The translations under genes and the position numbers were made by a program. DNA of 59,141 nt from a virus. Its lineage: Duplodnaviria; Caudoviricetes. The stretch is from positions 1-59,141 of IMG/VR virus record IMGVR_UViG_3300035070_001240; one strand, written 5' to 3'. Position 1 is the first letter of the stretch, and each line of letters starts with the position of its first letter. Below the pieces are notes generated by a model. The model had not been told where the DNA came from. It saw only the letters and a program-made list of their open reading frames with translations, and ran no database searches. This document shows, in pieces, positions 32,451-55,711 of the stretch.

Positions 32451-32932
32451 ACATCTTCTATTTACATTCTGATCCTGTTACATGTGCCGAATGGCATTGT
32501 GATAAGCACGTAGTCAAGATGATCCTTGAATACGCTCAGTTGCTGTCTACAGCTCATCATGAACTTGATGGTACACCATCAGTCAACTGCTACAAATCAA
32601 CGCACAGAAACCATCCTAGTGCCATCTGGGTCAGGACTAATCGCAAGAACTATCGTTGGTTATGGCGTTTACTTGATGCTACAGCCACTGAATACACTCA
32701 TCGCTATGGTAAGGTACATGCTACAAAACTAAAAGGCATTGTAGACAGTCTTAAATCCTGCCCATATGAATTATTAGAAGGTATCTCAATGACACCTATG
32801 CCTCAATGTATGCCTGATGAATACAAGGTTGACAACGATCCAATTCAAGGATATCGTAACTATTATCTAAATGATAAAGCATACATGGCTAAGTGGACTA
32901 ATCGTAAACAACCTGAGTGGTGGGCAGTATAA
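32447..32932 (+). CDS. Pyrimidine-dimer DNA glycosylase-like protein
   Basis: MNIFYL...DKHVVKMILEYAQLL, H.NHP, YRNYY. Confidence 0.75.
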   Translation: MNIFYLHSDPVTCAEWHCDKHVVKMILEYAQLLSTAHHELDGTPSVNCYKSTHRNHPSAIWVRTNRKNYRWLWRLLDATATEYTHRYGKVHATKLKGIVDSLKSCPYELLEGISMTPMPQCMPDEYKVDNDPIQGYRNYYLNDKAYMAKWTNRKQPEWWAV

Positions 32933-33453
32933 TGTTTGAAAAAATATTTAGCATTTCAAAAGATTTTCTATCAACAGAACAACGTGACAAGATGCTTGTT
33001 GATTTGTTTATCAACAAGAAGTTTTCCTTTCCACCTAAGTCTGACATTGGTAGAGAAATAAAGAATATAATCAAGGATCATAACAAGTCAAACAACTGGT
33101 ACTTCAATCTAGATCGTATTGAACATATTAAACTGTACTACATGGATAACGATAAGCCTTCTTCGTTTCCTATTATGCTGCCTTCTCTTGAAGTACCAAA
33201 GTCTATGCAGTATCATCAGAAGCAACGAAAGATTGTTGCATTTAGCAAGATCAACGATAACGTAGAAAATGTTATGGGTGGTGATCTTTATATCAAATCG
33301 TTTGATGGTATTAATCTAAATCTTACAGAGGTATCTAAACCTGGAGATTTGATTATCTTCCCTTCCTTTGTACCTTTCAACATTATACCCGTAGGTAAGA
33401 ATGAACGTGCTGTTTATCTACAGTGTATCATTCAAGGATTATCGTTTAGATAA
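32932..33453 (+). CDS. Degenerate 2OG-Fe(II) oxygenase-like protein
   Basis: RKI, GGDL, GDLIIFPSF..., PV..R fold motifs but no HxD or distal His. Confidence 0.55.
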   Translation: MFEKIFSISKDFLSTEQRDKMLVDLFINKKFSFPPKSDIGREIKNIIKDHNKSNNWYFNLDRIEHIKLYYMDNDKPSSFPIMLPSLEVPKSMQYHQKQRKIVAFSKINDNVENVMGGDLYIKSFDGINLNLTEVSKPGDLIIFPSFVPFNIIPVGKNERAVYLQCIIQGLSFR

Positions 33454-33465
33454 AAGGATTGAAGA

Positions 33466-34023
33466 ATGTTTATTGACCCATTTTATTATATTCAAAGATC
33501 ATTCATTGACAATGATGAAGCGGAATATCTCGTTGATATTTTAAATAATAATTCCAATAATAAATTAAAAGCTTCAATAGAAAATGGAAGTGATTATAAC
33601 ATTAGATCAACTAATGTTTATTTTATGCCAGATGAAATATATAGTGATTTCAATAATATGTTCTATACTTATTGCCTTAATATAAATAATTTATTGGGAT
33701 GGAATTTTGATATTACTAATACTGAAACAGTACAATTACTTGAATATAAACAAGGTGATTTTTATAAACAGCATATAGATATATTAAATAAGAATAATAA
33801 AAATCAACAAAGAAAAATTACTGTAGTTGTTTTTCTTTCTAGCCCCGACACGTATGAGAGTGGCGAGTTTGTTTTGTTTGACGGCGGTGACGAGTTTTCT
33901 TTTCGGCTTGACAGGGGCGATGCGATTGTGCTACCGTCCTTCGTTCCTCACGAAGTTCGACAAGTTAGTAGTGGAACAAGATATTCTTTAACAGCCTGGA
34001 TCAGTGGACCCACATGGAGATAG
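33466..34023 (+). CDS. 2OG-Fe(II) oxygenase (prolyl-hydroxylase-like)
   Basis: Y..HID, RKIT, PSFVPHEV..V..G.RYSL..W..GP. Confidence 0.88.
   Translation: MFIDPFYYIQRSFIDNDEAEYLVDILNNNSNNKLKASIENGSDYNIRSTNVYFMPDEIYSDFNNMFYTYCLNINNLLGWNFDITNTETVQLLEYKQGDFYKQHIDILNKNNKNQQRKITVVVFLSSPDTYESGEFVLFDGGDEFSFRLDRGDAIVLPSFVPHEVRQVSSGTRYSLTAWISGPTWR
33908..33937 (+). promoter_or_regulatory. Possible internal promoter
   Basis: TTGACA-N18-TACCGT with extended TG, ~90 nt before the 34027 ORF. Confidence 0.35.
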
Positions 34024-34026
34024 GAT

Positions 34027-34410
34027 ATGAACGATGATGATCTTTTGGAAATACCAGACTTTCTAAAAAGAAAGTATGATCCTTCTAAAAAATTTAAAGA
34101 ATATAAAATAGAAAAGCGTACATGGGTCATGCCTGATATGGAATCGTTCAAGCGTGAAAGGGAAGAAAGAGAAAAAAGAAAACATGAAATCATTATAGAG
34201 AAGCAAGAAAGAAAACAAAGAAAGAGAAACAAGTTTAAGATTGAAGGATATGTTATTGAAGCTATGTCAAAAGGACATAACACTTTTGGACAAATTAAAA
34301 ATAACATTCCTTCTGATATTGAAGATAAAGATATTAAGACAGCTATAACTAGACTTATAAATAAAAATAAAGTAATCAAAGTAACAAGACGTATTTATAA
34401 ACTTAAATGA
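34027..34410 (+). CDS. Protein with FtsZ-tail-like N-terminus, charged helix and possible winged helix
   Basis: MNDDDLLEIPDFLKRK; C-terminal TFGQI...IKTAITRLINKNKVIKVTRRIYKL. Confidence 0.6.
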   Translation: MNDDDLLEIPDFLKRKYDPSKKFKEYKIEKRTWVMPDMESFKREREEREKRKHEIIIEKQERKQRKRNKFKIEGYVIEAMSKGHNTFGQIKNNIPSDIEDKDIKTAITRLINKNKVIKVTRRIYKLK

Positions 34411-34426: not shown

Positions 34427-34666
34427 ATGATAAAATATGCTCTTGTTATTTGGATGGACGCAGCGACAGTAAATGATTGGCATGATTCAAAAGATGACGG
34501 CCCAACTATTGTTTATAGCTGTGGCTTGTTAATCAAGGACGAGCCAGAATATATCACTTTGTCATCCTGTCAGGAACAAGACGACATGACAGTCAACGGA
34601 AGTATTTCAATTCCACGATCTTACATTATTAAAATGGAGACACATGAATGGAAGTTCAAGTCATAG
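34427..34666 (+). CDS. Small phage protein
   Basis: WMDA...S.G.L...IPRSYI. Confidence 0.6.
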   Translation: MIKYALVIWMDAATVNDWHDSKDDGPTIVYSCGLLIKDEPEYITLSSCQEQDDMTVNGSISIPRSYIIKMETHEWKFKS

Positions 34667-35316
34667 ACTTTATGGGTTCTGATCTTACTGTAGTGAATGC
34701 AGCAAGAGTCAGTTTTGAAAAAGAAAGTGAAGCAGAATATTGGGAGTATCTAGATTTAGGACAAACGTCTGGTGACCTTGTAGCTGTCTTAAATGAAAAA
34801 GATCAGAAGCTTATTAAGTATCTAGCAAAGCATAATCACTGGACACCCTTTGGACACCCTCAAGTTACCTTCCGTATCAAAGCACCTATCTTTGTAGCAA
34901 GACAGTTAGGTAAGCATCAGGTAGGTATGGTATGGAATGAGGTTAGTCGTAGATACGTCGATAGTAAACCTGAGTTCTACCGACCATCTTCTTACAGACT
35001 ACGTGCGGATAATGTAAAGCAAGGGTCAAGTGACGAGACTACAGCGTGGATAAATAATGATTATTATGATACGTGTACATATGAATATGAGATGATGATT
35101 GAGGAGGGCATCTGCCCTGAACAGGCTCGTATGGTGCTGCCACAATCTATGTACACCAAATTCTTTTGGACCGGAAGTTTAGCAGCTTGGATGCGTGTGA
35201 TTAACTTACGATTGGATAGTCATACTCAGCAAGAGACAAGAGAAGTTGCGGAACAGATTGCAGGTCACATAAAGACCTTATTTCCTGTTTCCTACGAGGC
35301 TTTAATAAATGTCTGA
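34648..35316 (+). CDS. thyX: Flavin-dependent thymidylate synthase
   Basis: VVNAARVS, HWTPF, APIFVARQL.KH, NEVSRRY, EQARMVLP, HTQQE. Confidence 0.95.
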   Translation: MEVQVIDFMGSDLTVVNAARVSFEKESEAEYWEYLDLGQTSGDLVAVLNEKDQKLIKYLAKHNHWTPFGHPQVTFRIKAPIFVARQLGKHQVGMVWNEVSRRYVDSKPEFYRPSSYRLRADNVKQGSSDETTAWINNDYYDTCTYEYEMMIEEGICPEQARMVLPQSMYTKFFWTGSLAAWMRVINLRLDSHTQQETREVAEQIAGHIKTLFPVSYEALINV

Positions 35317-35653
35317 TATGTACACTGTGGCGTGGTTAGCTGGTTTATTTGAAGGCGAAGCTTGTTTCTCTATGTCTGTGGATAAAAGGTCAGGAGTACC
35401 TAGTTGTCGTATCCACTTCGAATCTACAGACTTGGATATTGTTAAGCGAGTTAAGAGCAACTTTAGAGGTAACTACTATGAAAATAAGGCCCCTTCTAAA
35501 CCCAAGCATTATCAACGTAGTTGGCGATGGCAATTAAATAAAAAACAGGAGGTATATGATCTTCTTATCTTAATAAAGCCATATATGTCTGTTAGAAGGA
35601 GGAAGCGTATTAACGAGTTACTTGTGTGTCTTAAGAAGAAGGGGGTAGATTAA
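35309..35653 (+). mobile_element. Free-standing single-motif LAGLIDADG homing endonuclease
   Basis: WLAGLFEGEACF, STDLDIV, L..IKPYM..RR. Confidence 0.8.
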
Positions 35654-35805
35654 TGTATTGGACTGGATCATTGGCAGCATGGGCTAGAGTATGTAAGCTA
35701 AGGCTTGACCCACATTCACAGAAGGAAACCAGAGAAGTAGCTGAAATGGTTTCCGGTTACATGGGTGATTTGTTTCCGGTTAGTTGGAAGGAGTTAATGA
35801 AGTGA
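35653..35805 (+). pseudogene. thyX: Second, divergent copy of the ThyX C-terminus (50-aa ORF, not in ORF track)
   Basis: MYWTGSLAAWARVCKLRLDPHSQKETREVAEMVSGYMGDLFPVSWKELMK; 30/49 identical to the ThyX C-terminus by hand alignment. Confidence 0.88.
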
Positions 35806-38128: not shown

Positions 38129-39788
38129 CTGTGGAAGCAGTGACGCCTTAGCGTACTACCCTGAAAATACCTATTGCTTTTCCTGTAAAGCACATAGACA
38201 TCTAAAATCTACAGGAGAAGTAGATCATTCAATTCCAGTAACCTACATTGAAAAAGGAACCTTTAAATCTATGGCTGCTGTTCAACAACAATTTAACTCT
38301 GATCGTTTAAATTTTTCTCCAATCATTGATCGTAAGATTGATGTAGATACTTGTAGAAAGTATGGAGTAAAACAAGGAACAACCAATGGAAAAGCCTGTC
38401 ATGTTTATCCTTACTACGACAAGGACACAAAGGAACACATTGTAAACAAGATTAGAATTGTAGATACAAAAGAGTTCTTCTCAGAAGGAGAGAAGCATAA
38501 AAAGACAGGGCTGTTTGGTCAGCATCTTTTCTCGGAAGGTGGTAAGTTTATTACAATTACAGAAGGCGAACTTGATTGCCTTGCTGCTTATCAAATGATG
38601 GGTAGTAAATGGCCTGTCATCTCTATACGAAATGGAGCAGCATCTGCTCTTAATGAAATTAAGTACAATCTAGATTATCTAGGATCATTCCAACATGTCG
38701 TACTTTGTTTCGATAATGATGAGCCTGGAATAAAGGCAACAAGAGAAATAGCTAATCTTCTTGAGCCTGGGCGTTGTAAGATCATGCATCTATCAAAGAA
38801 GGATGCCTGTGAATATCTGATGCATGGACAGACACAAAAGTTTGTACAGGACTTTTGGAATGCTAGAACCTATACACCAGAAGGTATTCTATGTGGACCT
38901 GATATTGAAAAGATTCTATTCTCTGAGGAGAAGATTGAAAGCTATCCGTATCCTTGGGACAGTTTGAATAGTATGACCTACGGTATGCGTAGAGGTGAGC
39001 TTGTTCTTGTTACAGCCGGTAGCGGTATTGGTAAGTCAAGTGTTATGCGTGAACTTGCACATTATCTAATGAAGACTGCTAATGAAAAAGTAGGCTGCTT
39101 GTTTCTTGAAGAGTCTGTACGTAAGACTAGTGATGGTATTCTATCTATTGAAGCTGATAAGAAGTTTCATATACCAGCATCTGAGCAAAATGTTTGGACA
39201 CAGGAAGAGCGTAAACAAGCATATGAAGGTATGAACAGACTAGAGAATGCTGTGTTCTGGAACCACTTTGGTTCGACAAGTTTAGATAATCTACTTAGCC
39301 GTATTAGATATATGGCAAAGGGACTAGACTGTAAGTACATTATTCTAGATCATATTTCAATTGTTGTATATGATTTAGGTGATGAACGTAAAGCAATTGA
39401 TACGGCTATGTTAAAGCTCCGTACACTTGTACAGGAGTTGAATGTCCATCTCATGGTTGTCTGTCATCTTAGCAGACCTAGCGGTACAGGGCATGAAGAA
39501 GGCGCATCTGTAAGCCTCAAGGAGCTACGAGGAAGCCATAGTCTAGCACAATTACCTGACATAATCTTCGCACTTGAACGTAACAACCAAGCGGTAAGTG
39601 AACAGGAACGTAGCCGTACTCTAATTCGTATTTTGAAGAACCGTTTCTCCGGTGAAACAGGACCAGTAACTATGCTTCTATGGAACAAGAACAATGGTCG
39701 TTTGACAGAGGTGCCAATTGATGATAGTAGTATTCTAGAAAATGTAGATGGTCTAGGAGAACTTCACGATGATAGAGAATTTGATTAA
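38088..39788 (+). CDS. DNA primase-helicase (T7 gp4-like)
   Basis: CPDC...CFSC zinc ribbon, TEGELD and DND TOPRIM, GSGIGKS, ILDH, LRGS, KNR. Confidence 0.95.
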   Translation: MSSEIVKSHQPCPDCGSSDALAYYPENTYCFSCKAHRHLKSTGEVDHSIPVTYIEKGTFKSMAAVQQQFNSDRLNFSPIIDRKIDVDTCRKYGVKQGTTNGKACHVYPYYDKDTKEHIVNKIRIVDTKEFFSEGEKHKKTGLFGQHLFSEGGKFITITEGELDCLAAYQMMGSKWPVISIRNGAASALNEIKYNLDYLGSFQHVVLCFDNDEPGIKATREIANLLEPGRCKIMHLSKKDACEYLMHGQTQKFVQDFWNARTYTPEGILCGPDIEKILFSEEKIESYPYPWDSLNSMTYGMRRGELVLVTAGSGIGKSSVMRELAHYLMKTANEKVGCLFLEESVRKTSDGILSIEADKKFHIPASEQNVWTQEERKQAYEGMNRLENAVFWNHFGSTSLDNLLSRIRYMAKGLDCKYIILDHISIVVYDLGDERKAIDTAMLKLRTLVQELNVHLMVVCHLSRPSGTGHEEGASVSLKELRGSHSLAQLPDIIFALERNNQAVSEQERSRTLIRILKNRFSGETGPVTMLLWNKNNGRLTEVPIDDSSILENVDGLGELHDDREFD

Positions 39789-41820: not shown

Positions 41821-42309
41821 ATGGCTGTTGTAAAAGGCAAATCACACTGGGCTAAACTTGATCGTGCAGTAAATGTATTTGATCCTTCTAAACCTCGCTG
41901 GTCTATTGATCTTCAACTAGACAAGGAAGGTATTAAGCAAATGAAGGAACTTGGTATTCCTGTAAAGAACAAGGACGATGATCGTGGAGACTTCGTTACT
42001 TTTCAAAAGGACCAGTTCTTATCCAATGGACAAGAGCTTCCAAAGCCTCGTGTTCTTGATGCTAAGAAGAACGATATTTCCGGTACACTAATTGGCAACG
42101 GTTCTATCGTTAAAGTATCCTTCTATCCAAAGGAATGGAAGTATGCTAATCGTACTGGAGTACGTGGCGTACTGAAGGATGTACAGGTCATTGAACTTGT
42201 AGAATATGCTCGTAAGGACGAGTTTGAAGAGGAAGACGGGTACGTTTCATCTACTCCTAATGTAGCTCAGAAAGTAGATTCTGTCGAAGATACTTTAGAG
42301 TTTGACTAA
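41821..42309 (+). CDS. Single-stranded DNA-binding protein (T7 gp2.5-like)
   Basis: IGNGS.V, VQVIELVEY, acidic tail ending EFD. Confidence 0.8.
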   Translation: MAVVKGKSHWAKLDRAVNVFDPSKPRWSIDLQLDKEGIKQMKELGIPVKNKDDDRGDFVTFQKDQFLSNGQELPKPRVLDAKKNDISGTLIGNGSIVKVSFYPKEWKYANRTGVRGVLKDVQVIELVEYARKDEFEEEDGYVSSTPNVAQKVDSVEDTLEFD

Positions 42310-49903: not shown

Positions 49904-52900
49904 TTAATCTCTTGTAAGAAGTCCTAGCCTACGTAGAGTAGCCTCCTCTGCCATTGGCCGTGCATTCTTTCTTATGCTACGCATGGCTACACCCCTATCT
50001 GTTTGACCCAGAAGTTCTGTAGCAATTCTATTTCTTAGGGCTTCACTTTGAATATTAATAATTAAGTCTGGACGTTTTTCAGTTGCAGCCTCTCTATTAA
50101 GATCAGCTATTTCTTTATAAATATCCCGAACAATATCAGTTTGTTTTTTATAGTTTGACATATCACCCTTAGTATATTCCAGGTTAGCTAGATTGATATG
50201 CTTTGCAAGTTGTGAATAATAGTAATCTTGAATACCCTTTGTTTCACCTTGTAAGAATTTATAATATTGCCGTTGTTGCCTAGCTTCTGCAACAGACTTA
50301 GGAGTAAAGCCAAAAGCTTTAGCAAGGTTTTCAAGTGTTCCAATTTCTTTAGAAGGCATTAATACTCTGCCTTGAGTTGTACGTACTGGTTTATCAAGGA
50401 ATTGAGTAGCGGCTGCATCGTAGGCATTTCTAACACCAATGGGTAGGAAAGCAGTTGCAAATTCAACAGCATTAAATTCTTTTTGTTTTAACGCCTCACG
50501 TGCCTTACGAGCAGAATCAATAACAACGCTTCCAGTTGGTCCATATGCAACGGATAGATCACCAGCCATAAGATCAAATGGAATAACTTCACCAACACCT
50601 ACACGGCGTCTAAGGTCAATGCCGGTAAGCTGTCCAAATACACCGCTCATTAAGATGTCGTTAGCTACGCCTGTAATTCCAAAGTTAGCTAAGGTTTGTC
50701 TCATTCCGGTTTCAAGATCAAACTCATAGTCACTTACTTCTTTAGACAGCATTTGGAGAAGTTGTTTCATATTCTCCATCCAAGGAAGTCCCATAGCTCC
50801 AGCAAAGAAAAGCATACTTAAAACCATAGAACCTAGTAATGCGCTTCCTAGTTTCTTGTCTACCTTTGCAATTGATAGTGCTTGAGCATACAAACCAACA
50901 TAGTTAATAACATAAGGCATAAACTGTGTAGCAACATTCAAAAATCCTTTATGGAATAGCTCTGGCCTGTTTTCCTTACTAATTAGAAACTGTGTCTTCA
51001 TAACCATCATTTCAGCGGCTTGAGTTGGAGTTGTCTTACGAGTAGAATACACAGTATATTTTGAATAATCGTCAAGCTTCTTGAGATTACTTGGAGATTT
51101 CTTTGCTAATCTGTATGCCGTTAAGGCAGTTGTGATACGGTTAATTTGCTCTATCGCACCAAACATGAAAGAACTAGCTTCTAAAATTTTTGCACCAGCT
51201 TGAGCAGCGTTAGGTGGTAAGCTATTGTTCAACTCTCCCAATGTTCTTGTTAGATTGGCTCCAGAGTCGATACTTGTTACAGCTTGAATAATGCCACGAG
51301 AGTGAAGATCACGTAGCATGTTCCATTCATCTTGATTAATTTTACCTTTTACTTGTTGAGGAACTGTTGGGCTTTCAAAATTAAAACCATAAGTATCTAA
51401 ACGATCCTTAGAAAGCTTAAATAAAAGTCTAGCATCGTTCATTGCTTTGAGTAGTTCTCTTGTTGAGCCTTTTCCAACAACAACTTTTAGAACTGGAAGA
51501 GTAGCAACAAATAGCTGTGTTAAGTTAACAATAGCAGAACTAAAGTTCATGCCAATTGTATAATGGAATGTTAGTCCTTTTAAAACAGAACCAGCATCAG
51601 CAGGATCATTGATATTTTCAACTAGCTTTTCAGCAGTTGTAACTAGTTTATTATTTTTTCCTACTTTTTCTGCAAGGTTATTTAAAGCTGTTCTCATAGG
51701 ACGATAGTATTCAAGGTTTGAGGCAGTATCTGAACCTGTACGAATATAATTACTTAAAGAATATGCAAGATAATTATCAGCAGTAGCAGGAGTATAATAA
51801 CCATTAACGACATTTTTAGCTTCTCTAGTTTCAAGAAACTTATTAAAGCCATCTGTAGTAATCACTGTTTCTAACTGTCCAATAAATTTTTTTACTTCAT
51901 CACTATTCTTGTTATATCCAAAAGCATCTGCCAGTCTTTGAAGTATACCAATATCCTTAACATCTAATTTTTTTAGAATATCATCCTTAGCTTCTACTCT
52001 GTTGTCTATTTCAGATATTGTATATCTTTTTGAATCAGCATAAATACCACTTTCTTTTAGTTGTTTTAATCTTTCATTTAATCTCTTTCTTTGATCTCGG
52101 ATAAAACGAGGAGTAAAATCGCTATCTAAAATTCTTGGAGTACTGGTTTCATAGTGAATAATCTTTTTAAGTTTATTATCACGGACAGTAAAGAAAAAAT
52201 CTCCTTGACGTTGGCGAGGAATATAATATGGATTACGGGTTTTTGTTGTTTCGTAATCATTAATAAATTTAATAATATTAAGCTGAGATATTACATTATC
52301 TATTAAAAGATTTTCTCTACTTCCTTTTTTAAATGTATCTTTATTATCATCTTTAAATTTAGTTAAAATTTGAGTTGCTAGTTGATTACTATTTAAATCT
52401 TTTGTATATGATTCTAAATCCATAATATTAACAGTAATTGGATTTTTATTTCCTCTTGGAATAATTTCAAAATTTAAAGTAGAAAGAGGAACTAATTTTG
52501 CAAGATCATTTAGATACATACGAACTGACTGTCTAATCTTATCATTAAGAACAGTCATTGTATCTCCCTGTGCCTCTTTAATATTTCCATATAGAGGAGC
52601 TTTTTGTAAGAAGAAGCGAATGAAGCTACGACCAACCGTTTCATACATACGGTCAAATCCTTGTCTTGCTTCATTATATTTATCAAAAAGCTTTTTAGGT
52701 AAGCGAATGGTTCCAGGCTGAACATTAAGATTAGCTAGAATAGTTCTGTATTGATCTGCATCAATATCCGTAGATACTTCATTTGTTTCAGGATCAATCG
52801 TAGCAACTGGTTCTGGAGCAATAGTTAGAATTGCATCTCCAGTTTCTTTATCTACAGTTAATTTAACTTGTTTAGAAGTACCAAGAGCATCAAGAATAAC

Positions 52901-55711
52901 AGCAAACTTACTAAGTGTCTTCTGTTCTTCACCAGTTGTTTTAGTAAAGAAATCTCTTAACCCTTGAAAACCAAAGATATTCTTTTGTTCACGACTTGCT
53001 CGTCTTCCCAATATATAATCATAGAATTTTCTAAATGCTGGAACTTTTTCTGCAATTCTAGTTGGCAGAGTAAGGCTCCATGCATTTGACCATAGGGTTT
53101 TACCGCTTTTTGCTAAATCTAAACCTTCATAATATTCTTTTAATTGTGGTGCTGCTGCTGCTATTTCCTCTTCAGTTACTAGTTCTGGAGAAAAGAATAG
53201 TTTATTAGCTGGGTCTTTAATATCGTTTAAATATGTATCTTCGATATTATTTTGATTTAAGTCTTGAGATACAGGTTGAGCAGGATCAAGAACCTCTGAT
53301 ACAGACTGCATAGTTTTAATTTCATCAACTAGCTGTTCTTCAGAATCAGGGTCTTCTAGTAATTTAATTTTTTCTTTATCAACAAAAGCTTGTAAATCAA
53401 CATCAAGAATTACATCACCAGGAGCTTTAATCTTCTCTGGAAGAATAGAAACATTTGGATCATTAAGAGCAAACTTTGTATTGATGTTATCAATTCGCTG
53501 TTGTCTTTCTGGGCTTTGGCTGTCCATTTCAAAGTAAGGAGTAGGAATTACAACATCGTTTTCTCTACTAGTTCTTTTCCAAATACCAGATTTAAAAATA
53601 TTCTCCATACGTTTTAAACGATCTTGAATATTCTTCGACGCATTCTTTTGTTGCTCAGTTTGTTGAGTATTTGTAGCGTCATTGACAGCTTGTTGTTCTT
53701 CAATAAGTTTCTGTGTTTCTTTTAATTCAGTATACTCATTGGCAATATCTTGTGCAGATGCAAATGGTTTACCAGTACGATCATTCTGTAATCCAACTCG
53801 TTTAAGAACACCATCAAGAGAAGTCTTGATGCGATTAGGAAGAATAAAAGGTCTTTCTCTTTCTAGAATTTGTTTTTCTCTAGCATCTAAACGTTGAGCT
53901 AGATAATCTTGATATAATCCCTCACCAAGACGATATGTAAGTTTTCCAATTAGATTTGGAATTTGATCTTCTGAAATATTATTTTGTTCTGCAAATGTTC
54001 TAGCTTGTCCCTCTGTTGTTATGTAACTTGGAACAAAACCAGCTTGTTTTATATCAGTATATTTTATATCTTCTGGAGCAATCTGTCTTTGACGAGTGGC
54101 TTGCATATGCCATTCTGGAGATGGCTTATCCGTAGCTGCATAACGATACCTTTGTTGTTCTTCTTCTACAGCTTGAATTTCTCTCCGAAGTCTAGGAGCA
54201 GAACGCCCATCAGCAGTTTTTAATTGTCTTGTTAGCTCACCCTTTAATTGGCCTAAATCATAATATGTTTTTCTATCTTTCTCTTTATTTAGAGAAGCTT
54301 GATATTCAATATTAAATTCTTCTTCTGCTTTAGCAGTCCAATCTAAAAGATTTTTAGAACCTTTCTTTGGTTCGACATAACCTTCTTTAACAAGATATTC
54401 CGTTAAAGCTTCCTTGCTTTTCTTGTTTTCAAAACCAAAGATATTATCAAAATTCTTTTTAACAATCCAGTTATCTTTTTTAATTTCACTTGGATTTACC
54501 CAATTAAGAATACGATCAAGATATGGTTTAGCTTTATCACCACCAGCAGATAAATCTCTAAGAACTGTATTAAGTTCATCATCTGCTGAGATACTATCAA
54601 CGAATTTAAGTTGAGCCGTGGCAGAACCCATACCACGAACTTCTTCTGAAACAGGATTTTCTACAGTAGTCTCTCTGGCTTCAGTATCTTCCTGTCCCTT
54701 ATTACGAGACATTAAACCAAGGCCAATTTCAAAAGTACCGCCTGGAATTTCTGCTACACCTTCAAGAAGAATTTCACCTAGTTTAACATCTTGACCAGAT
54801 GCAATTTGTGCAGCAAATTCACCCGTACCTCCAAGAGTAGGCTGAATAACAAGAGCTTCCGTACCAACAGCAGCGGGTACTTTAAGTTTAGAATATGTTT
54901 TTCCTGCTTCTTCCGCTGCCTTCTTTGACCTTTGAACTGCACCTACTAATTTACCAGCAAAACCAACAGAAAGAGCATCAACGGCAGCAATTGGAATACC
55001 ACGTTTAACAGCAAAGGCTTCAAACTCAGCCATTCTGTCTTCATCTTTAAGAAGGTCTGCTACTAACTTATCATCTTTTAAAGGAGATTGTTTTCCTGTT
55101 TGTTCTACAAGATATTCATTCATAGCCTCAAGAGTAGAAGCACCTACTTCTGTTGCTAAACTACCAAGACCAGCTACAGAGGCTAAGGCAACAGGACCAG
55201 CACCACCAATTGCAGCTAAAGCTGTTGCGCCTAAAGCTGGAGCAAACGTAGCAAAGGATTCGCCAACAACAGTTCCAATAGCTTTTAGGCCAGCGGTTGT
55301 TGTAGCTGCATCCCAAAACTCTCCAACGCTTTCAGCAGTACCAAGAGCGGTGATAGCTTCTTCTACTTCTTCACTGTAAGGAACCTGAGCTAAATAGTTT
55401 TGATAATCTTGAATATCTTTTGCAGCATTTTCTGGATTGTCAAAACCAAGGCGAACTTGAGCAACATTAGCCATTTCCCCAAGGCGATAGAAACCTCGTG
55501 CAGCCCAATCAGGAAGGGATGAGAATGGATGATCAGGAGCTTCAGCTACTGTTTTAGCTTGATCTGCCGCCCAAAGACCAGAGGTATAATAAGGAATAAA
55601 TACATTATTAACATATCCTGCTTCTTTATCGCCGCCATCAGCATAAGCTTCTGGAATGTCAATTTGTACTTCTTTTTCTTCTGGGCCAATAAGATAAGTT
55701 TCAATTGGCAT
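49904..55711 (-). CDS. Large internal virion / DNA ejection protein
   Basis: 1935 aa, helical, YIPR..GD and NFSSA.VNLTQ motifs, last gene of the ejection cluster. Confidence 0.7.
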   Translation of the reverse strand: MPIETYLIGPEEKEVQIDIPEAYADGGDKEAGYVNNVFIPYYTSGLWAADQAKTVAEAPDHPFSSLPDWAARGFYRLGEMANVAQVRLGFDNPENAAKDIQDYQNYLAQVPYSEEVEEAITALGTAESVGEFWDAATTTAGLKAIGTVVGESFATFAPALGATALAAIGGAGPVALASVAGLGSLATEVGASTLEAMNEYLVEQTGKQSPLKDDKLVADLLKDEDRMAEFEAFAVKRGIPIAAVDALSVGFAGKLVGAVQRSKKAAEEAGKTYSKLKVPAAVGTEALVIQPTLGGTGEFAAQIASGQDVKLGEILLEGVAEIPGGTFEIGLGLMSRNKGQEDTEARETTVENPVSEEVRGMGSATAQLKFVDSISADDELNTVLRDLSAGGDKAKPYLDRILNWVNPSEIKKDNWIVKKNFDNIFGFENKKSKEALTEYLVKEGYVEPKKGSKNLLDWTAKAEEEFNIEYQASLNKEKDRKTYYDLGQLKGELTRQLKTADGRSAPRLRREIQAVEEEQQRYRYAATDKPSPEWHMQATRQRQIAPEDIKYTDIKQAGFVPSYITTEGQARTFAEQNNISEDQIPNLIGKLTYRLGEGLYQDYLAQRLDAREKQILERERPFILPNRIKTSLDGVLKRVGLQNDRTGKPFASAQDIANEYTELKETQKLIEEQQAVNDATNTQQTEQQKNASKNIQDRLKRMENIFKSGIWKRTSRENDVVIPTPYFEMDSQSPERQQRIDNINTKFALNDPNVSILPEKIKAPGDVILDVDLQAFVDKEKIKLLEDPDSEEQLVDEIKTMQSVSEVLDPAQPVSQDLNQNNIEDTYLNDIKDPANKLFFSPELVTEEEIAAAAPQLKEYYEGLDLAKSGKTLWSNAWSLTLPTRIAEKVPAFRKFYDYILGRRASREQKNIFGFQGLRDFFTKTTGEEQKTLSKFAVILDALGTSKQVKLTVDKETGDAILTIAPEPVATIDPETNEVSTDIDADQYRTILANLNVQPGTIRLPKKLFDKYNEARQGFDRMYETVGRSFIRFFLQKAPLYGNIKEAQGDTMTVLNDKIRQSVRMYLNDLAKLVPLSTLNFEIIPRGNKNPITVNIMDLESYTKDLNSNQLATQILTKFKDDNKDTFKKGSRENLLIDNVISQLNIIKFINDYETTKTRNPYYIPRQRQGDFFFTVRDNKLKKIIHYETSTPRILDSDFTPRFIRDQRKRLNERLKQLKESGIYADSKRYTISEIDNRVEAKDDILKKLDVKDIGILQRLADAFGYNKNSDEVKKFIGQLETVITTDGFNKFLETREAKNVVNGYYTPATADNYLAYSLSNYIRTGSDTASNLEYYRPMRTALNNLAEKVGKNNKLVTTAEKLVENINDPADAGSVLKGLTFHYTIGMNFSSAIVNLTQLFVATLPVLKVVVGKGSTRELLKAMNDARLLFKLSKDRLDTYGFNFESPTVPQQVKGKINQDEWNMLRDLHSRGIIQAVTSIDSGANLTRTLGELNNSLPPNAAQAGAKILEASSFMFGAIEQINRITTALTAYRLAKKSPSNLKKLDDYSKYTVYSTRKTTPTQAAEMMVMKTQFLISKENRPELFHKGFLNVATQFMPYVINYVGLYAQALSIAKVDKKLGSALLGSMVLSMLFFAGAMGLPWMENMKQLLQMLSKEVSDYEFDLETGMRQTLANFGITGVANDILMSGVFGQLTGIDLRRRVGVGEVIPFDLMAGDLSVAYGPTGSVVIDSARKAREALKQKEFNAVEFATAFLPIGVRNAYDAAATQFLDKPVRTTQGRVLMPSKEIGTLENLAKAFGFTPKSVAEARQQRQYYKFLQGETKGIQDYYYSQLAKHINLANLEYTKGDMSNYKKQTDIVRDIYKEIADLNREAATEKRPDLIINIQSEALRNRIATELLGQTDRGVAMRSIRKNARPMAEEATLRRLGLLTRD

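Follow-up and report, generated by a model that had tools for sequence, protein, structure and literature searches.

The conserved C-terminal tail of the cell division protein FtsZ (referred to as CTC or CCTP) is a docking tail for FtsA, ZipA, FzlC and other partners. T7 Gp0.4, DicB and similar inhibitors act on FtsZ assembly itself; to our knowledge, this is how the phage division inhibitors described so far operate, and we know of none that has been described as a copy of the FtsZ tail competing for its anchors. Phage lambda Kil is likewise reported to act on FtsZ assembly itself (PMC11762379). Here, we describe a 127-amino acid (aa) protein with the N-terminus MNDDDLLEIPDFLKRK (open reading frame (ORF) translation), encoded by an uncultured marine podovirus whose genome, rated complete, makes up the whole of IMG/VR record IMGVR_UViG_3300035070_001240 (59,141 bp; "the window" below). 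We propose that its N-terminal peptide docks on the host receptors of the FtsZ tail, FzlC-like proteins and/or FtsA, where it would compete with FtsZ and tether a winged-helix cargo. On the sequence evidence we put the probability of this reading at about 0.5.

The resemblance lies in residues 4-16, which contain an FtsZ tail-type core, L-[DE]-I-P-x-F-L-[RK]-[RK], with acidic residues before it. We reached four Pelagibacter genomes by way of a published SAR11 16S probe, found FtsZ in all four, and in each of them FtsZ ends ...[ED]DDLEIPAFLRRQK[NS]. When the phage protein is compared by BLASTP with one Pelagibacter FtsZ, the best local alignment pairs residues 4-16 with FtsZ residues 479-491 (8/13 identical, 11/13 positive, E 0.032 for that single comparison). 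In the FtsZ core, the Leu, Ile-Pro and Phe-Leu residues and the basic positions make the contacts seen in structures of the tail bound to ZipA and to FtsA, and it is to these that the nearly invariant residues of the phage protein correspond. The phage protein is not itself an FtsZ, since it lacks a tubulin/FtsZ GTPase domain of the TIGR00065 type: Pfam yields nothing at E <= 0.1, and the structural model consists of a helix and a winged helix.

The peptide is also the part of the protein that has changed least. Homologs, all of 109-141 aa and carrying neither names nor Pfam domains, number five in a word-indexed collection and 15 representatives at E <= 0.001 in an exhaustive one, and a family alignment (A2) of 19 sequences reaches down to 24% identity. 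In this alignment L110 and Y124 are invariant, L7, I9, P10, R15 and T86 are nearly so, and F12 and L13 are kept in most members. Fifteen of the 19 sequences match the pattern L.IP.FL[KRQ]R strictly, and 18 match it in a relaxed form. Averaged over segments, the fraction of sequences with the most common residue is 0.69 in the motif and 0.36 in the linker that follows it, with the helix (0.47) and the winged helix (0.53) in between, making the motif the best-conserved segment of the family and the linker the least. The pattern occurs once in the six frames of the whole window. A preliminary description of this locus had proposed that the protein starts with a mimic of the FtsZ C-terminal peptide; the resemblance is real, it matches the tail of the probable host group, and it is retained by relatives as distant as the family goes.

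This conservation profile also bears on whether the peptide might be a degradation tag, recognized by a ClpX-type host protease adaptor that also recognizes the FtsZ tail and serving to limit the lifetime of an early protein. The peptide sits at protein termini, as degrons do, and FtsZ is a ClpXP substrate with C-terminal determinants. A degron would have no need, however, to copy the whole anchor-binding core with its Ile-Pro and Phe-Leu pairs, and conservation peaks at the very residues that contact the anchors in solved FtsZ-tail complexes. We therefore give this explanation very little credence.

An AlphaFold2 model built on alignment A2 (mean predicted local distance difference test (pLDDT) score 86.1) separates the protein into a flexible and a folded part. 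Residues 1-37 have no fixed structure (pLDDT 66-82), the docking peptide itself scoring 66-74 and the linker modeled as coil, and the peptide makes no contact with the folded part. One continuous helix of 44 residues follows (pLDDT 82-96), and its end packs with helices 87-93 and 100-112 into a bundle completed by wing strands at residues 116-118 and 123-126. The C-terminal domain is thus predicted to be a winged helix-turn-helix (wHTH), a three-helix bundle with a C-terminal beta-hairpin wing. Foldseek searches against the PDB and the BFVD viral models returned winged-helix domains only, among them Z-alpha, IclR and MarR N-domains, the cullin WHB and the RPA32 winged helix. The E values are weak (0.02-0.15; best 0.035 in one of the searches), although template modeling (TM) scores to the target reach 0.77 for 1j75_A and 0.80 for 9f2a_C. 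The charged helix and possible winged helix of the preliminary description accordingly appear in the model, at residues 38-81 and 82-126. Residues 70-127 are strongly basic by sequence count (14 K/R versus 6 D/E). The ligand of the modeled domain may be either DNA or protein: among the closest structural matches, RPA32 and cullin have winged helices that bind proteins and not DNA, and among PDB sequences the family profile weakly matches Sul7s at E 0.027 and, at E 0.031, the winged helix of RPA32.

Searches beyond its own family assigned the protein to no known group. Neither Pfam nor PHROGs contains a family for it at E <= 0.1, tblastn (E <= 10) and megablast against 50,697 phage records found no match to the protein or gene, and the ESM Atlas offered nothing beyond sub-threshold winged-helix leads. 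A phmmer search with residues 1-30 against PDB sequences found no match, and a word-index search with residues 1-40 returned only the near-identical P0001. No fused form was found among longer proteins, in a search that is weak as evidence. The features of the gene and protein are collected in the table.

Table. Features of the gene and its 127-aa product, in window coordinates
Feature	Position	Strand	Basis
Gene for the 127-aa protein, stop codon included	34027..34410	+	ORF list and sequence
FtsZ-tail-like docking peptide, residues 4-16, DDLLEIPDFLKRK	34036..34074	+	Alignment, BLASTP, model
Variable linker, residues 17-37, ending in a semi-conserved W-x-M-P-D-[LM] patch	34075..34137	+	Alignment A2
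Single long E/R/K-rich helix (spacer), residues 38-81	34138..34269	+	AlphaFold2 model and composition
Winged-helix domain, residues 82-127: helices 87-93 and 100-112, beta hairpin 116-126	34270..34407	+	Model, Foldseek
Shine-Dalgarno-like GGAG, 7 nt before the ATG	34016..34019	+	Read from sequence
Weak sigma-70-like match, 9/12 positions, unsupported as a promoter	33957..33985	+	Pattern scan

The same peptide recurs on other viral proteins. We searched viral contigs with a DNA pattern coding for DLL[DE]IPxFL followed by two mostly basic codons, with the same codons in reverse order as a control; the forward pattern occurs in 49 contigs and the reversed one in 4, a 12-fold excess. Forty-eight of the 49 peptides could be read in frame, the 49th not fitting the regular expression. 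Of these 48 peptides, 33 are no more than 13 residues from the nearest start codon (some also have an in-frame start farther away), 14 are no more than 20 residues from the stop, and one is internal. With the motif masked, the carriers fall into 13 mutually unrelated clusters (BLASTP E <= 1e-3), from contigs that span 34% to 67% GC. Eight carrier loci belong to the family described here (73-152 bits with the A2 profile), 12 encode a protein of about 300 aa of unknown function (PHROG 11903) and 10 a protein of about 100-120 aa. Among the others are three methyltransferases, one of the MT-A70 type and two of the N6/N4 DNA type (one with 906 aa), as well as a pair of DUF1376 primosomal/replication-initiation proteins, an enzyme resembling queuine-tRNA-ribosyltransferase (DpdA type), a 30-residue ORF and a small protein in which the motif occurs twice. 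The peptide, placed terminally on 13 unrelated clusters and far in excess of its reversed control, is thus portable as a docking motif for protein ends, and its distribution bears the signature of a short linear motif that has arisen again and again to engage a conserved partner in the host.

Several of these carriers deserve a description of their own. The methyltransferase, DpdA/TGT-like and DUF1376 carriers (loci L142, L157, L160, L145, L171 and L175) come from GC-rich phages and bear the peptide terminally, except in L175, where it is internal. The small protein with two motifs (L144:3478-3873:+, also in L151, L173 and L186) is a 132-aa viral protein with a zinc ribbon-like CxxC...CxxC pair and two tandem C-terminal motifs, the full peptide first and then, four residues on, a shorter D-L-P-A-F-L-P-K copy; it has no Pfam or PHROG match. 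The 30-residue ORF (L154:691-780:+), on a 40-kb viral contig, contains little besides the FtsZ-tail peptide and could be either a free decoy peptide or a chance ORF. The idea that the C-terminal carriers are phage FtsZ or tubulin homologs was rejected, as none of them has such a domain.

The recurrence speaks against regarding the protein as a plain small winged-helix regulator of transcription or replication whose N-terminal peptide has no docking role. Its winged-helix fold, its basic charge and the place of its gene among early genes would all suit such a regulator, but the peptide is better conserved than the winged helix (0.69 versus 0.53) and turns up on unrelated proteins 12 times more often than the reversed control, and we consider the explanation distinctly improbable. 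Another explanation holds that the peptide contacts no host protein at all, and that its partner is another phage protein or the winged helix of the same polypeptide, with a role in, for example, autoinhibition or assembly. The gene does keep its position beside the phage's own replication genes, and the W-x-MPD patch after the peptide forms a second semi-conserved element. Yet the 13 unrelated clusters belong to phages of widely different GC content with different replication genes, no common phage partner is evident, and the model places the peptide out of contact with the folded part; an internal partner thus seems improbable to us.

The genomic position of the gene is itself conserved. Nine related loci have flanking sequence long enough for comparison. 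In these, genes for a primase-helicase, a DNA polymerase, a single-stranded DNA-binding protein (SSB)-like protein and an exonuclease are a few kb away at most, and this proximity holds even where the gene is on the opposite strand or the gene order is altered. Such a setting raises the alternative that the peptide docks on some other conserved host hub, such as the sliding clamp or a replisome or nucleoid protein, with its likeness to FtsZ being convergent and division not involved. All carriers with a recognizable domain are DNA enzymes or replication initiators, the gene always adjoins the replication module, and the RPA32 winged helix, a weak match of the family profile (E 0.031), serves as a protein-protein module in replisome recruitment. 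A docking peptide at the end of a DNA enzyme is, moreover, typical of clamp partners. Against this, the match to the FtsZ tail spans nine ordered positions with acidic residues before them and basic residues after. The clamp-binding consensus starts with a conserved glutamine and has no proline core; no glutamine is conserved in the family, and the FtsZ tail is far closer to the peptide than any clamp-binding consensus known to us. The DNA-acting cargo is in any case weak evidence, because most annotated non-structural phage proteins act on DNA. We regard a different hub as the main alternative, though an unlikely one.

Two replication proteins of this phage have termini of another kind. The primase-helicase ends ...HDDREFD (39699-39788) and the 162-aa SSB-like protein ends ...EDTLEFD (42220-42309), both acidic with a penultimate Phe. 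T7 replisome proteins have acidic tails with a penultimate Phe, and from the presence of such tails on these two proteins it appears that the phage uses at least one other terminal docking peptide.

The host of the phage can be approached through its replication and packaging genes. The window, with a GC content of about 37%, encodes a T7-like primase-helicase, a family-A DNA polymerase, ribonucleotide reductase, ThyX, terminase, portal and ejection proteins. Among deposited phages, TerL best matches HTVC027P and HTVC023P (38-39% identity; genomes of 57-61 kb), together with a metagenomic relative, and the primase-helicase best matches the Pelagibacter phages HTVC104P, 115P and 103P at 44%, with Ralstonia phages at 43%. 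By these comparisons the phage is a distant relative of HTVC023P/HTVC103P-type pelagiphages, and a SAR11 host is likely. Many uncultivated HTVC023P-type pelagiphages have been described, in a study whose main text mentions neither FtsZ nor cell division (PMC9599517).

If the host is a SAR11 bacterium, its set of FtsZ-tail receptors probably differs from the familiar one. The preliminary description had named FtsA and ZipA as partners, and these fit the probable host poorly: zipA is, along with ftsE, mipZ, minC, minD and sepF, mostly missing in SAR11 according to a 2025 preprint. Our survey of FtsA and FzlC covered genomes G001-G101 and loci L130, L136, L256-L258, L137-L140 and L194-L217. The FtsA model matches nothing better than MreB in the four Pelagibacter genomes, where no full-length FtsA was found. 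The curated FtsA cut-off is passed by 9 of 101 Pelagibacterales genomes; FtsA-like matches with E below 1e-20 occur in 47, and the remaining 54 show only MreB-level matches. Two intermediate matches (about 80 bits, 369-371 aa) are genuine divergent FtsA proteins, since they occupy the ddl-ftsQ-[ftsA]-lpxC slot and have a Pfam FtsA domain. The same slot in G004, one of the four Pelagibacter genomes, holds a 235-aa ORF without a Pfam match that looks like an FtsA remnant. SAR11 FtsA thus comes in a form of 397-411 aa scoring about 120-237 bits with TIGR01174, a divergent form of 369-394 aa scoring about 71-94 bits and still in the ddl-ftsQ-ftsA-lpxC slot, and, as a third form, the G004 remnant; ftsZ itself lies between mraZ and rsmH in SAR11.

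A better-distributed candidate is FzlC, a protein specific to alphaproteobacteria (PMC11244171) that in Caulobacter, according to a preprint, binds the FtsZ C-terminal peptide and recruits or anchors FtsZ to membranes (bioRxiv 10.1101/171280). Each of the four Pelagibacter genomes has one copy of a protein of about 540 aa with a heparinase II/III C-terminal domain (PF07940), a family to which Caulobacter FzlC probably belongs, a control search having matched in Caulobacter. The protein is present in 89 of the 101 Pelagibacterales genomes, 11 of the 12 that lack it have an FtsA-like gene, and the family is found in 46 of 81 genomes sampled across the class. Two of the genomes are unpublished (G069 of the 101 and G133 of the 81); without them the counts are 47/100 for FtsA-like matches, 88/100 for FzlC-like proteins and 45/80 for the class, and no claim depends on them. 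Because of this distribution we consider the FzlC-like protein a candidate anchor, and its retention suggests that it may be the main FtsZ anchor in SAR11 where FtsA has decayed. For a SAR11 host, it would most likely be the receptor of both the FtsZ tail and the phage copy. FtsA, where intact, may be a second one.

We therefore favor docking of the peptide on the host's FtsZ-tail receptors, because residues 4-16 match the FtsZ tail of all four Pelagibacter genomes; because the peptide is the most conserved part of the protein (18/19 members) while the adjacent linker varies freely, and is unstructured and of low confidence while the rest of the protein folds confidently in the model; because the peptide recurs at the ends of unrelated phage proteins (49 contigs against 4 for the reversed pattern), as a portable docking motif for a conserved host hub would; because the gene stands beside replication genes in nine related loci; because candidate receptors occur in the probable host group (PF07940 in 89/101); and because the winged-helix part is basic. 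In this proposal the protein would be a three-part adaptor, probably made early along with the T7-like replication genes. Its first 16 residues would act as a short linear motif copying the C-terminal peptide of host FtsZ, the flexible linker and the E/R/K helix of about 44 residues would hold this peptide apart from the basic winged helix, and the winged helix would hold DNA or a replication protein. The peptide would occupy the pocket that host FtsZ-tail receptors offer to FtsZ, and would therefore compete with FtsZ. As a decoy, it could stop or delay division of the infected cell by competing for membrane anchors; as a tether, it could bring the winged-helix cargo, whether phage DNA or the replisome, to membrane-bound anchors. 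These two roles, both put forward in the preliminary description, are compatible, the evidence does not separate them, and the protein may serve both. More tentatively, FtsZ-tail copies might constitute a widespread and portable tag at the ends of DNA-handling proteins in many unrelated phages, which in this phage would plug into an FzlC-like anchor, arrest SAR11 division and moor the replication complex at the membrane.

Several observations weigh against this proposal. Every carrier with a recognizable domain acts on DNA, which a replisome-linked hub explains at least as well as the divisome does. The assignment to a SAR11 host has its own weak points, as pelagiphages, the closest phages in culture, reach only 39% identity in TerL and 44% in the primase-helicase, and the phage ThyX, only about 41% identical to SAR11 ThyX, is uninformative on the host. 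An IPxFL-type peptide is absent from every frame of four relatives (HTVC023P, HTVC027P, HTVC104P and 023Pt_psg01), and because none of these cultured or assembled relatives has it, the gene must be accessory rather than essential to such phages. Within the family, P0002 is the sole exception to the motif, a deletion having taken out its second half. Finally, the equation of PF07940 with the family of Caulobacter FzlC is itself provisional, its support here being the control match in Caulobacter.

At the DNA level, the ORF at 34027..34410 has the properties of a real gene. Related genes on viral contigs were compared in seven pairs, and dN/dS was 0.04-0.26 in all of them; values so far below 1 indicate purifying selection and rule out a non-coding artefact. 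The ORF cannot be extended upstream, since as listed it begins at the first start after a stop. It is one of a series of closely spaced genes that share one direction between about 27.9 and 46 kb of the window, and its ATG follows 4 nt after the stop codon of the preceding 2OG-Fe(II) oxygenase gene (34021-34023), which makes co-transcription with that upstream gene more likely. The candidate promoter that the preliminary description saw just upstream could not be confirmed as meaningful: it is probably the 9/12 match at 33957-33985, and because the region contains 38 matches of that grade against 27.4 +/- 5.7 in shuffled sequence, we do not count it as promoter evidence.

The surroundings of the gene include further features. 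The upstream oxygenase gene (33466-34023; PF13640, E 1.2e-16) is clear and stands in tandem with a gene at 32917-33453 that has no Pfam match and whose relatives precede the FtsZ-tail gene in L002 and L003. Downstream, thyX (34648-35316) encodes a complete Thy1 domain; next come a gene for a LAGLIDADG endonuclease (35309-35653; PF00961, E 4.4e-06) and a 50-aa ORF (35653-35805) that is a diverged repeat of the last ~50 ThyX residues. The segment 34648-35805 has the appearance of a site where a homing endonuclease inserted and carried in a piece of a donor thyX. Farther away, a 1,935-aa ORF (49904-55711, minus strand) has no Pfam family at E <= 0.001; its neighbor encodes a protein of 657 aa that weakly matches a "DNA ejection protein" PHROG, so this ORF probably encodes a virion protein that is internal or ejected.

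Phage interference with host division and the cytoskeleton is known, while copying of the FtsZ tail is a mechanism that appears not to have been described: a search of open-access papers and bioRxiv found no description of a phage-borne FtsZ-tail copy. If our proposal is right, it would establish a new principle for interference of this kind, namely competition at the membrane anchors of FtsZ or their hijacking as a mooring site, and the recurrence of the peptide on many unrelated phage proteins would make this a general strategy rather than a curiosity. It would extend short-motif mimicry from eukaryotic to bacterial viruses, as the first case in which bacterial viruses mimic a cytoskeletal tail with a short linear motif, and it would imply division arrest in SAR11, the ocean's most abundant bacterium. 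The phage peptide could also be a natural probe for what anchors FtsZ in SAR11, where several of the usual division genes are missing or decayed.

Compared with the FtsZ tail itself, the phage peptide has the same core, L-[DE]-I-P-x-F-L-[KR]-[KR], with acidic residues before it and a match to the Pelagibacter FtsZ tail, and it likewise sits at a disordered protein end with a spacer between peptide and folded part. The two differ in that the FtsZ tail is C-terminal and connected through a disordered linker, whereas the phage copy is N-terminal, spaced by a charged helix and attached to a 127-aa winged-helix protein without a tubulin/GTPase domain. Lambda Kil, T7 Gp0.4 and DicB are small early phage proteins, as this protein probably is, and the protein described here could likewise stop host division, but it has no sequence relation to any of them (no PHROG or Pfam match). 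The proposed layout, a nucleic acid-binding module joined to an element that reaches the division or membrane machinery, is similar to that of SlmA, Noc and phi29 p16.7. SlmA works through the FtsZ tail, and p16.7 tethers replicating phi29 DNA to the membrane. The polarity of SlmA is nevertheless the reverse, since SlmA binds the FtsZ tail and the phage protein carries a copy of it; there is no homology to any of the three, and DNA binding is only one possibility for the winged helix of the phage protein. A further parallel is the short-linear-motif mimicry that is well documented for viruses of eukaryotes, in which, as we propose here, a disordered terminus copies a host docking peptide that unrelated viral proteins have gained independently.

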